From Elsinoe ampelina (Eukaryota), in the NCBI GenBank assembly GCA_010093995.1, contig ML992505.1, positions 411,433-475,432 of the forward strand: a stretch of DNA of 64,000 nt, in the 5' to 3' direction. Positions within the stretch are counted from its first letter, which is position 1. Every line of letters begins with the position of its first letter. The notes beneath the pieces are model-generated. The model worked only from the letters and a program-made list of their open reading frames with translations, was not told where the DNA came from and did no database searches. The translations under genes and the position numbers were made by a program. Below are positions 18,569 through 42,373 of this stretch, one piece after another.

Positions 18569-18595
18569 CGTCACGAAATCCCTAAGCGTAGGGAG
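18569..18595 (+). repeat. Left TIR of the Plavaka element
   Basis: Inverted match to 42347-42373. Confidence 0.9.
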
Positions 18596-18651
18596 TTAGA
18601 ATATTAAGTTTCCCCGTGTTAGACTAAGTTTAACTACGTTAGGTCGCTGCA

Positions 18652-18738
18652 AACGCATTCTACCTACCTAAATTTAGTTCAACGCACCCCTACCTACTTG
18701 AATTCAGTTTAACGCACTAAACCTACCTTAATTCAGTT
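18652..18738 (+). repeat. Three ~29-30 bp subterminal tandem repeats
   Basis: AACGCA..CTACCTAC.T.AATT.AGTT unit repeated three times just inside the left TIR. Confidence 0.8.
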
Positions 18739-18859
18739 AAAGGCGTTAGCGAGATTAAGCATAGAAGCGCTTTTATAAGGGCATAAAAGTAGACATTTCC
18801 TGCTTAGTTCTCTACCTTCTAACATAAGTAATAGACTAAACTAAAATAACCTTGTTTTA

Positions 18860-37799: not shown

Positions 37800-40700
37800 T
37801 ACTAACTATACTGCCGCTTCCCTCTCTCCTCTCTACTCTCCTCGGCCGTACTTATATCTACTTCTTATTAACTAGTAATATACTTAATTAAAGCTATTAA
37901 GCAAGCTCTCGCCCTTGACAATAAAGGCTATAGAGACTTATATAGTCTCTTAGAGAATATTATAGTAAGTAAAGGCATAGTTAGAAGAATATTTAGGTCG
38001 ATTTCCGACAGGAGAAGACTAGAGAAGAAGGTACTTCTAGTAGCACTAGACAGTAATAACATCCGATACACGTTTCGGCATATAACGGAGCTATTAGAGA
38101 GCGGCGACAGTTAAGCTACCTTCCGTGCTCTTGCCTATAAGATAAGTACGAACTTTAGACATTAGTAGGTATAGTTACACTTAAGATTATATAAGCCTAG
38201 AGGGATATAGAACAATACTAACACGCCTACCTCGATTAAATCCTCGGATCGCTAATTGCAATTATAAGCGCCTTTGCTCTCTAATCGATTAGACGACATA
38301 CTATTAGTAGTTCGTAAGGATAGAGAGATATACCCTGTCTACTCGATTAGAGATCTTCTACTTACACGTCGTAAAGCTATAGTTGACATGTTTAAAGAGG
38401 ACGTAGATATCGAGTTTAATTAGCTAAGAGTAATATCAATTATAACGGACCACTATATATATAACAGGCAAAGCGATGTAATAGGGTAGAAGGACAATAG
38501 AACGCTACATTTCGCTACGATAGAGAATGCTATTTAGTTTAAGGCTATTATCTTGTCTAAGATATTACACAGTTCGCCCCTGTGTATCCTAATAAGGCGA
38601 CGAGATTAAGGGAAGCATCCGGCGGAGACAAGCATAAAGCATAACAGTCTAGTAGTAGACTAAGTCGAACTAAAACATAGCGGGTAAGCTCCGCTAAGCC
38701 GTACCTACTACTAAACCCCGAGGATTTAGTTTAACTAGCACGCTTTATTCTTCCTTACCTTCTAACTAGATCGACCTATAGAATTATTCGTATAAGCTAT
38801 CTTTCTATAATTAATTTGTTTAGTCTAGTAGCATCCTTATATAAGGCTCCTAAGTATAGATATTAACTACACTAACCTTGTTTCTTTAGCGGCTAACATC
38901 TAGACTATAGAATTAAGTACGTAGGCTTCTCTTATTTGTTTAGGTGTAGAAGCATAGTCTTCCGACAGTCTACCTAACTAGTCCGGGCCTTAGCTTAGAA
39001 GCTCTCTACTAGACATATAAGGAGAAGAGTATAATTACGTTAGTAGCTAGTAAAAGTAATATAGGACTCAGTAGCCTAAATAGCTTAATAGATAGCAACT
39101 CTTAGAGGAAGACATTGCACTTATATAGTAGAAGGTAGGCTAATTACGAATAATAACGGAGGAAAACGCTAGCGCGATTAGATAACTATAGCGAGAGAAC
39201 TTTGTACTTAGAGAGTATATTAGTAAAGCTTTTCGGGGGTTTAGCGTTGCCTCTACGGACCTTACTAGGGAGTTTAGGGGCTTATTTAGATTAGACAAGG
39301 GTACACGGCGCTACACTAATAGTGCTACTCTACTATTACTAAGTATAGTTACTAATAGCTAATTAACGCCCGCCCCTTGTAGTAACATAATTAGTAGACA
39401 ATAAGTATCTCTATCTAGCGTACTCTATTCGGATATACTAGACTACGAGGTAGAGAGCAATTAGTGCTTTTAACACTTAGAAGACATTCTACTTGGTAAA
39501 GAAGGGGCTACTAGCGTAATTAGTAAGGGAGCTATAGTATAAATTGTGCTACCTATCTATATATAGAAGGGCTAATGCCTATAGTCTCTCGAATTAGTTT
39601 ATAATTGCTCGGTATAAGTTTAATCTACAATTTCTCTCTATAATATTCTACCTCTAGTGTTGCTTAACGTAACTATAAATGCCTTATTTAGTTTAAGTAT
39701 TTAGTCTAAGTAAGTTCGAGCATTTTTCTTTTTTAGTTTAGGTTCTAATAATTAGCACGCCGCGAGTTAGAACTAGCTATAAGTTTAATTTAATACCCTT
39801 ACTAGTTACAATTTCTATAGAGTATAGGCAGGTATAACTAGATTTAATTAGAAGAAAGTCGTGCACTCTAAACACCGAACTAAGCTATTATCTAACTTAA
39901 ACTAACGCTAAGTTACTATAACTCGCATAAGACAACTATTCCTGTTATAGCATACATTATTAGGGCCCGTCGTGCTAAACTCTCTTATACCTATATACCT
40001 CTTAACTAAAACGATTAGGATAAGTAATGTCCTAGTTACGTCGGCGTTAGTATAGCTTAGGCTACAAGGCTAATAATTATTACAAAGATAACAATTTAAG
40101 TTAGGTAAACTAGGACAAAGAAGAGTATAGCTTTATTAGTAAGAAGAGCTAGGCTAACTACGTAGGCCGTAAATACAATATCGAAGACAAAGGAGAAGGC
40201 ATAGATCGGACATCGCTACGCTTAATCTAAGATTAAGGGAGCTATAAGCCGATAAGAATAGCCTAGTATTAGCCTCTATGCCGGTTTAGTTAGTAAAACA
40301 ACATTTATAGGACGTACTAAACAAGTATAGTAACATCTTCGCGGCGGTATAAGACAAATTATGTATAAGTATAGCTATTAGGCAGAATTATAATACAATG
40401 TTACTAACGTTAAGTAATCGATAGCTCCTTATACGAATTATAAGGCACTAGCGCTCGATCTATAAGTAGCTACTAGTGGCTTATCTATAGAGGACAATAG
40501 GCAAATACCCTTCTATAATTATAGCTAGTAAAGTATATTACTTGCTAAAGTTAATTACTTACTAATAACGTCTAGCTCCGAGAGGTGCTCTGCTATAGTC
40601 GTAATAATATTACATAATCGGTAAGCGAGATACTCTAGCGCGAATAGCTTACATAAGAGCTAGAGGATAGCGAGCTACCGAATTAGGCACGTAAGCTACT

Positions 40701-42000
40701 AGAGGAACAAATATATTAATGCAAGGACGGCGATCTAGTACGCAATAGATATACTTATTGATTAACCGCTAACGTATAGCAGCGGAAACGCTTTAGGAGT
40801 TCTTTAATATATAAAGCCTTCCAAGTAGCCTTTGTTAGATATAGAGGCTTAGCTACAATAGATAGCACTTGCTATTACTTCTAGGAACCGATACTCTTTC
40901 TCATCTCCTCCCTCCTAGCGACGATTTATGTGCTCTTAGTTAAGTAAGTAGACAGTGTTAAGTCCTACTTACCTAAGGGAGTAGTAGTATTCTATTGCAT
41001 TAAACCCTTAGAACTCAATTATGTCCGACTAAGTATTTAAAATAACTTCCTTGCGTAGATTAGCTAGAGACAAGCTCTTATTTTTCGTTAGCTAAAGCTT
41101 AGCTTTACTAAGTGTGTTAAGAAGAATAGGCTTACTATTATCATAGTAGTATTAAATATCTCCCTTTACGCTGCTACTATAGAAGGGTTATTAGATAAGG
41201 AGGATATACGCTAAAGGTGCGTAGATACCTTCCTATTTTAGTTCGGTCTACCTAAATTCGAACTAACCTATAGAGAAGTTACGTGCTTAAGAGCGGACCT
41301 AATCGCAAAGGGGATAGCTATAACGTAGCGCCGGCACGTAATGCTTCTACTAAGTAGCTAGTACAAGGTAGACTTAATTGTCCTATTAGCTTTTTAGTCT
41401 TAACACAAATAGATAGAGAAGAGCATTAAGCTAATAACGAACACTTAATCGCTATATATTAAGGTACTACTTAGTTCGCGTATAGGAACGGAGTACTAAA
41501 ACACTATATAGCTACTCCCACGGCATAAGCGTAACTAGCGTAAGTGCCTAACATAGACAATAACCTTGCTATAACTACAACTATAACTATAACTGCTCCT
41601 AAACTAGGTTAGGTCGTAGTTAAAGTATATAAGGAGAATTAATAGACTTATCGACAATATCCTTATAGGCTACTTAATTATACGCGTGCTATACTGTCCT
41701 AAGAACCTAATAGCGATTTACTAATAATAGAGGCATAGTAGAAGGATTTCTTAAATATATAGACATAGACGAATTTTTTGTCCTTTGTATATAAGGAGTT
41801 TAAAGGCTTATTGCGCAAACTAGTGTTATAGTACTAAATAGCCTAGGGGCGTAGTAGTAGTAGCTTAGTAATAGAAGGGGATAGACGACTACTAGATAGA
41901 GATACTTTCCTAGAACTAATAAGAAGGGACATTAGATCGCAAGTAGATAATATATACATTGTTATTAAGAGAAGCGTTACGTAGAATATTAAGTAATATA
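37800..42000 (+). pseudogene. Cluster of RIP-degraded unknown cargo genes (about 37800-38610, 38900-39700, 40025-41000, 41150-42000)
   Basis: Protein-like plus-strand frames with intron-like segments and RIP stops. No family recognised. Confidence 0.4.
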
Positions 42001-42346
42001 TATACACTCTCGATAATCTTGTATCCTTACTAGACATAATAGATAGTTAATAAGGCTTTATGTGTTTTATAGACATATATAATACGTACTACGAGGTAGG
42101 TAGTCTAAAATCGAGCTAATCGCCTTTATAACAATAAACTAATAGATCTACGAACTAAGAGACACCTTAACTAAGACGAACTAATGCGTCGGGATACGCT
42201 ATATACTATTACATTTTGCGTGTGCTACGTTTAGTAGGTTCTTACAAAAAAAAATACGTTGCTTCTAAGTAGGACCTAGGGGTAACTAGGGAATTACATC
42301 GAACTAAATCGGACTAAGTTAGTTACTTAGAAGTAGTCTAACGTAG

Positions 42347-42373
42347 CTCCCTAGCGTTAGGGATTTCGTGACG
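42347..42373 (-). repeat. Right TIR of the Plavaka element
   Basis: CTCCCTAGCGTTAGGGATTTCGTGACG followed by AC. Confidence 0.9.

Follow-up and report, generated by a model that had tools for sequence, protein, structure and literature searches.

We analysed a 64,000-nucleotide stretch of DNA from Elsinoe ampelina (contig ML992505.1 of assembly GCA_010093995.1, positions 411,433 to 475,432; hereafter the window, whose own numbering is used throughout) and found that positions 18569-42373 are probably a single dead copy of a PlavakaB-like cut-and-paste DNA transposon, lying in the genome of an ascomycete with active repeat-induced point mutation (RIP). The 23.8-kb candidate carries the relic of one Plavaka transposase between terminal inverted repeats (TIRs) that resemble published PlavakaB ends, and its interior contains a tandem duplication of about 7.3 kb.

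Transposase relic and element boundaries

Scanning 18401-42702 against Pfam in all six frames, with X in place of stops and matches kept at E ≤ 0.01, we identified a Plavaka DDE transposase relic of about 900 codons in one frame of the minus strand (20850-23561), which phmmer and tblastn also recovered. The match to PF18759 (E = 3.7e-31; 109 bits against a cut-off of 26.3) spans profile positions 38-322 of 325, and a single stretch covers residues 3-891 of the best phmmer match, the 905-aa protein P0001 (E = 1.2e-112), which bears out the reading of a full-length relic in an earlier note on this DNA. A HMMER search of 1.84 billion representatives returned 1158 proteins at E ≤ 0.001, 41 of them at E ≤ 1e-30, and the nearest named homologues were hypothetical proteins from Polychaeton citri and from Aureobasidium pullulans, a hint of a dothideomycete host. 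All seven homologues used as tblastn queries matched 20850-23552, with nothing below E = 0.5 elsewhere in the window. As a positive control for our word-index protein search, the relic gave five matches at E ≤ 1e-10, all of which carry PF18759.

The relic contains 62 stops among the 902 codons of its single frame, and at 51 of 75 positions where nine homologues never vary it keeps their residue. D140, D223, D239, E523 and H499/H503 (P0001 numbering) are retained, and invariance across the homologues marks the D/E residues as putatively catalytic. At C255/C258, a pair invariant among the homologues, the relic has Y/C, a G-to-A change of the RIP type, with the H-x3-H motif kept. Changes elsewhere in the relic are likewise RIP-type (W or Q to stop, C to Y, H to Y, E to K), and the transposase was inactivated by point mutations of this kind.

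This relic, the only Plavaka relic in the window, is bracketed by a TIR pair found by repeat-pair search and gapped alignment. The left arm, of 30 nt, lies on the plus strand (18569-18598) and starts CGTCACGAAATCCC, and the right arm with which it pairs lies on the minus strand (42344-42373). The repeat-pair search gave 87% complementarity over 30 nt; the outermost 27 nt agree at 24 positions, exactly as the earlier note had read them, and the gapped alignment agrees at 28 of 31 columns with two 1-nt gaps. This alignment scored 43; when the paired 400-nt end was shuffled 300 times, scores averaged 19.9 and reached 27 at most. Reading the junctions directly, the left one runs ...TATATAG AC followed by CGTCACGAAATCCCTAAGCGTAGGGAGTTA, and the right one TAGCTCCCTAGCGTTAGGGATTTCGTGACG followed by AC TAGAC..., with the proposed AC target site duplication (TSD) present as a candidate at 18567-18568 and 42374-42375. 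GC content steps from 0.26-0.32 outside the ends to 0.33-0.43 inside them. A RIP-degenerate 25-nt terminus pattern matched the window at these two ends and at no further terminus, so that no nearer, cryptic right end could be detected.

The earlier note had taken Plavaka to be known mainly as a transposase domain and had presented the ends as a definition of the element. Both points are overtaken by the description in 2025 of complete PlavakaA and PlavakaB elements, with their termini and 2-3 bp TSDs (Biology 2025;14:1741, PMC12730594). In the accessible part of that paper, PlavakaA has TGT..ACA termini with 2-bp TSDs, and PlavakaB has CATCA..TGATG termini with 2-3 bp TSDs and the family pattern CATCA(G/C)NAAAA; the PlavakaB consensus starts in its supplement include CATCAGCAAAAC, CATCACGAAAAC (PlavakaB-1_AuSu), CATCACCAAAAT and similar sequences (PMC12730594). 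The terminal bases of our element, CGTCACGAAA, are one transition away from this pattern, and its first 12 bases, CGTCACGAAATC, are identical to those of PlavakaB-1_AuSu at 10 of 12 positions. Its termini, CGTCA..TGACG, thus share four of five bases with the published ones, the second base being G and not A, and the AC/AC flank falls within the published 2-3 bp range (PMC12730594). This G is native to the family, because RIP makes G-to-A and not A-to-G changes. The pattern CRTCASNAAA has three matches in the window, at both ends and at 43331-43340, where 0.83 would be expected per window on both strands. This near agreement with a published terminus is the best independent support for the boundaries. 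Since the terminus match is joined by a 2-bp flank and by the bracketing of the sole Plavaka relic, the boundaries stand well above chance, and the ends at 18569 and 42373 are real and credible.

Inward of the left end by 84-170 nt, Tandem Repeats Finder reported a 29-bp subterminal tandem repeat on the plus strand (18652-18738; 3.0 copies, 77% matches, score 102). A RIP-degenerate pattern, ATTYAGTTYRAYGYA, located a lone inverted copy of its core, ATTTAGTTCGATGTA, on the minus strand near the right end (42295-42309); this pattern was designed post hoc from the very sites that it matches, three per 64 kb (18672 and 18702 on the plus strand, 42295 on the minus strand). We found no tandem array inward of the right end, and those at 42517-42635 fall beyond the element. 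Of the subterminal tandem repeats previously described, the left array is therefore present, but the right end has no array.

Each TIR also includes a mini-palindrome, CCCTA-N4-TAGGG (18583-18596 and 42346-42359), and all differences between the arms in the outer 27 nt fall in its 4-nt centre. The palindrome holds CCCTAA/TTAGGG, which is also the telomere unit of fungi, probably by coincidence.

A third Plavaka-like terminus lies on the minus strand at 43320-43340 (CGTCACTAAAATTTGGTGGCC read inward), 967 bp to the right of the element and at the border between the AT-rich, RIPed block and DNA of normal GC content. It is similar to published PlavakaB starts (for example CATCACCAAAATTG), and an older Plavaka-like element, within which the 23.8-kb one lies, may have had its right end here; no partner for this terminus was found in the window.

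RIP and copy number

Positions 1 to about 43,400 of the window form an AT-rich block with strong signs of RIP, and values are normal from 44 kb onwards. In every 2-kb bin of this block TpA/ApT was 1.67-2.43 and (CpA+TpG)/(ApC+GpT) was 0.17-0.59. RIP across the element had been called uniform; this is approximately right, as TpA/ApT is 1.67-2.43 in all bins, but GC content varies from 0.33 to 0.43.

We then collected contigs with at least 80% likeness to 17569-37568 from two runs of one sample, which is probably the assembly's own source rather than an independent strain. The runs yielded 3875 and 5041 contigs on this interval, and all 30 bins were covered. In run X1, 628 contigs were at least 99% alike, 824 fell at 95-99%, 1432 at 90-95% and 991 below 90%. 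The differences listed for this run occurred at 435 places for A>G, 424 for C>T, 453 for G>A and 368 for T>C, compared with 4-18 for each type of transversion. Because these many diverged copies differ almost only by transitions, we conclude that 17.6-37.6 kb was multicopy and RIPed. Every part of this interval has diverged copies, in agreement with the claim that the unit was multicopy.

Summed depth reached 10,000-14,400 over the transposase and 4,200-7,900 over 23.6-29.6 kb, and was 1,500-2,600 over 18.9-19.6, 29.6-32.9 and 36.2-37.6 kb. The high depth of the transposase may simply reflect contigs of related subfamilies drawn to coding sequence. The interval 19001-20000 is both the least RIPed (GC 0.43) and the one of lowest depth (1749-3725); weaker RIP where fewer copies existed would fit this observation.

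Interior of the element

Between the transposase and the right end, we found a tandem duplication of about 7.3 kb by blastn and RIP-tolerant alignment, with unit A at 23500-30450 and unit B at 30870-37700. Three blastn pairs link the units, all at an offset of 7245-7348: 23628-24129 with 30976-31476 (83%), 25016-25278 with 32346-32610 (69%), and 29300-30340 with 36545-37585 (83%). The RIP-tolerant alignment is collinear between about 23.5-30.45 kb and about 30.87-37.7 kb. Five intermediate 1-kb blocks scored 750, 349, 230, 393 and 207, against 75-202 for controls of reversed or unrelated DNA; four of the five lay above all three controls, two of them only slightly, and the fifth clearly. The best-kept blocks differ by 12-16% transitions and 2-4% transversions. 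The duplication and the transition-type differences together indicate a tandem duplication that was later RIPed, and without its second unit the element would measure about 16.5 kb.

Contig joints at 24508>31841 and 31277>23941 were considered as single-unit copies and rejected as contigs of other copies that switch between units A and B; the joint 37123>17678 was rejected as low-complexity DNA. Within unit A lies an internal repeat of about 183 bp (29677-30154; 36922-37399 in unit B), seen as blastn self-matches at offset 183 with 73-74% identity. Apart from the A/B duplication, we found no long internal inverted or LTR-like (long terminal repeat) pairs.

We explored the interior for further genes by 3-base periodicity and purine phase. 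Candidate coding relic a, on the minus strand (25200-27000), reached a periodicity signal-to-noise ratio (SNR) of 9.5, the strongest in the AT-rich block (4.6 for the transposase, 7.0 for a Copia reverse transcriptase relic in the left flank), with a purine fraction of 0.64 at one minus-strand codon phase. A second peak (SNR 8.4) marks candidate relic b (27300-28800), assigned to the minus strand with uncertainty, as its phase signal is symmetric between the strands. Weaker peaks occur at the unit B counterparts of both relics. On the other side of the transposase, the stretch from the left end (18600-20100) combines GC content of up to 0.43 (0.431 at 19001-20000), weak coding-like periodicity (SNR 4.4) and a minus-strand purine phase.

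Homology searches did not extend this list. The six-frame scan of 18401-42702 gave no Pfam family besides Plavaka, and five candidate frames (including 18600-20100, relic a and both frames of relic b) gave nothing at E ≤ 10. Relic a had no match at E ≤ 0.001 in the word-index protein search among 8000 scored candidates of 412-1313 aa; the transposase relic, equally RIPed, did yield relatives in that search. We also searched 3780 open reading frames (ORFs) from 80 related metagenome loci against the window. This gave 116 matches, of which 15 fell elsewhere than on the transposase, all of them beyond the element; on its left side the search did detect relics of Copia and Gypsy. Neither the six-frame Pfam scan nor the 3780 ORFs revealed a retrotransposon or other transposable element (TE) protein relic inside the element. 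A stop-density scan for gene relics was non-discriminating, the true transposase frame itself not being distinctive, and de-RIPing unit A against unit B for a frame that loses stops did no better than an unrelated-DNA control.

As the Pfam, ORF, protein-search and de-RIP tests were all null, the roughly ten further gene relics of the earlier note are unconfirmed, and its multi-gene cargo lacks homology evidence for a second gene. There are two or three candidate coding stretches at most, two of them duplicated. Those at 25.2-27.0 and 27.3-28.8 kb are plausible coding relics on compositional grounds, and the interior is not a demonstrated set of captured host genes.

Relatives in metagenome loci

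The closest un-RIPed relative is L002, a compact locus on a 5.8-kb contig with one gene and subterminal repeats. Direct GTTCCAACCGTT-type motifs lie upstream of its transposase and inverted copies downstream (839-1290 and 5060-5480), the way in which subterminal binding sites are classically arranged in CACTA-like elements. In L001, 5.9 kb lie between CATCAGCAAAAGTGT repeats. Exact termini of L002, L006 and L017/L018 were not found by repeat search and by eye, and CGTCACGAAAT occurs in none of the related metagenome loci.

L017 (9401-16696) and L018 (2117-9444) have in common a transposase and the roughly 4.3 kb that follow downstream (77-79% identity), and may represent another multi-gene Plavaka lineage. 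By eye, the end of this shared downstream stretch resembles a CCHC zinc knuckle.

Alternative explanations

Several observations weigh against reading 18569-42373 as one transposon with these ends. The compactness of L002 implies that conservation of the long interior does not extend to this relative, and the uneven depth implies that the parts were perhaps not one equally abundant unit. An inverted 17-mer with at least eight G/C arose in 12 of 120 shuffles of the AT-rich block, which places the TIR, taken alone, moderately beyond chance. The AC/AC flank is one instance in which chance dinucleotide identity is possible, and a lone 2-bp TSD is weak. The two subterminal regions have five 9-mers in common against a null mean of 7.2, not above background. 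Among the sequences in the accessible supplement, none starts with CGTCA, against 28 word-starts with CATCA (PMC12730594). Finally, no other copy with both termini and no empty site was seen, nor does the 64-kb window contain an uninterrupted copy of the flank that could stand in for an empty site.

Some of these points would be accommodated by a composite locus, in which the ends are genuine Plavaka-family ends and the DNA between them is more than one unit. One version combines a compact element of about 5-6 kb with repeats unrelated to it and with a fragment of a second copy that supplies the right end; the other invokes unequal recombination between two copies. The compact relatives L002 and L001 favour a composite, as does depth that is 5-8 fold apart between the transposase and other interior parts. 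The family is also abundant in the genome, which makes a second end nearby plausible, the A/B duplication shows that the locus was rearranged, and the terminus at 43320-43340 lies less than 1 kb away. Yet no second transposase relic was found in the window, no RIP-degenerate terminus lies between 23.5 and 42.3 kb, and no relic of another TE class lies inside. The arms are, moreover, closely matched and correctly oriented with respect to each other. Size is no argument against a single unit, because published PlavakaB families reach 15-22 kb in the accessible data (PMC12730594). We consider a composite, the main rival reading, rather unlikely.

That the TIR is a chance pairing in RIP-simplified DNA, with the true Plavaka ends degraded beyond recognition, is improbable. 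Exact inverted 17-mers are common in such DNA (about 2 per Markov-1 shuffle of the 43.5-kb AT block, 3 observed), and the G/C-rich 17-mers in shuffles and the background level of subterminal k-mer sharing also favour this explanation. It does not account for an alignment of the arms that outscores every shuffle, nor for outermost 10 bases that fit the PlavakaB terminus at an expectation below one per window, nor for the bracketed relic, the matching 2-bp flank and the GC step at the ends.

A Starship-type or other non-DDE giant cargo element with a Plavaka passenger is barely credible: its size above 20 kb and the repeat-rich block are all that favour it, whereas the six-frame scan at E ≤ 0.01 gave neither a tyrosine recombinase (DUF3435) nor any other Pfam family besides Plavaka, and the termini are of Plavaka type, so that the distinction from Starships drawn in the earlier note is upheld.

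Returning to the single PlavakaB-like transposon, its history may be proposed as follows, with the enzymatic steps taken from what is known of the family. A CMCT/EnSpm-related DDE transposase of about 900 aa would have bound the TIRs and the nearby subterminal repeats, cut the element out and inserted it again, duplicating 2 bp of the target, here AC. This copy would derive from a parent of about 16.5 kb by the internal tandem duplication. The family would have become multicopy, after which RIP would have mutated the whole element and given the transposase its 62 stops. The 18.8 kb upstream of the transposase would be the element's own interior, perhaps with one or two accessory genes of no recognisable family (25.2-28.8 kb).

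Flanking DNA

The left flank is highly repeated, with a depth of 11,653 at 17569-18235. Pfam scans of 3 kb to the left (15569-18568) and 1.8 kb to the right (42374-44175) detected no hAT domain, which leaves the proposed hAT host without support; a Histone match in the flanks (E 0.02, 15.6 bits against a cut-off of 26.4) was set aside as chance. Farther to the left, 3792-16123 contains retrotransposon relics: a Copia reverse transcriptase relic on the plus strand (9497-10990), a Gypsy reverse transcriptase/RNase H relic on the minus strand (11859-12872) and a Tf2-type integrase SH3 domain on the minus strand (5158-5334). LTR-like direct repeats pair 3792-4252 with 15671-16123 (93%) and 5951-6163 with 11065-11276 (94%). 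From this arrangement, a Copia element seems to lie nested within one of Gypsy type. To the right, the first large normal gene encodes a class II myosin heavy chain on the plus strand (49233-56045; Myosin_head, E = 2.2e-263) and is followed by a gap of 95 N at 56517-56611.

Comparison with known elements

PlavakaB transposons of fungi belong to the CMCT clade. Consensus lengths that we inferred from the accessible supplement run from about 6.6 to 22 kb, with PlavakaB-1_ScCi at about 22.0 kb, PlavakaB-3_ScCi at about 19.8 kb, PlavakaB-2_PoPi at about 15.5 kb and a family labelled TuBo at about 13.1 kb, and the families in it are mostly from Agaricomycotina (PMC12730594). As far as these elements are described there, ours resembles them in PF18759, C-x-TCA(G/C)NAAA termini, a 2-bp flank, great length and the H-x3-H motif; their C-x2-C motif reads Y-x2-C in our element after a G-to-A change. 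It differs from them in its second base G, its RIP-active ascomycete host, its full inactivation by RIP and its 7.3-kb duplication, and a TET/JBP gene was not detected in it. The TuBo label we take to stand for Tuber. Set against the Plavaka elements in the accessible literature, ours is slightly the longest, partly by virtue of the internal duplication. Titles and the opening lines of abstracts revealed no literature on Plavaka elements that are RIPed or come from Dothideomycetes.

From a red alga, giant Plavaka families that measure 17.4-19.1 kb and hold tandem repeats as well as three accessory genes have been described, in a preprint that also cites similar elements in Chondrus (bioRxiv 10.1101/2025.02.11.637652). 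In the accessible part of that work, the algal elements are like ours in their Plavaka transposase, large size and internal tandem repeats, and unlike it in belonging to another kingdom and in carrying further genes, PAG1-3, with N6-adenine methylase and SET, ParB-like and 2-oxoglutarate (2OG) oxygenase domains. Relics of PF01555, PF00856, ParB-like and 2OG-oxygenase domains were not detected in our element, either in six frames at E ≤ 0.01 or in the five candidate frames at E ≤ 10, searches from which RIP may hide weak relics. A more speculative proposal, which we think doubtful, is that a Pezizomycotina lineage of Plavaka has conserved the 18.8-kb interior as an accessory module, with at least two genes of novel families at 25.2-28.8 kb, duplicated at 32.5-36.1 kb. 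If true, the element would be a fungal counterpart of the red-algal multi-gene giants with a new terminal variant, CGTCA, and a candidate DDE-driven gene vehicle in fungi, where only Starships are known for that.

CACTA/En-Spm elements, of the CMC superfamily, resemble ours in short TIRs with subterminal repeats and 2-3 bp TSDs, and often carry more than one gene. Our element differs from them in that its termini are not CACTA and its Pfam match is to Plavaka and not to Transposase_21/tnp2; the two groups belong to related DDE clades (PMC12730594). The Starships of Pezizomycotina are similar to our element in size and fungal host; it differs in its DDE transposase and Plavaka TIRs, and no captain was found in the six-frame scan.

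Since the ends, the TSDs, families of about 22 kb and multi-gene giants are already published, as far as the accessible sources go, this element adds to a known kind. It opens no new question, and its wider interest would lie in the identity of the non-transposase genes. Beside the known families, most of those characterised being from mushrooms, it adds a Plavaka family with the variant terminus CGTCA from a RIP-active ascomycete, and an example of a very large Plavaka element that was once abundant enough to be destroyed by RIP and that helped to build an AT-rich block beside normal genes.

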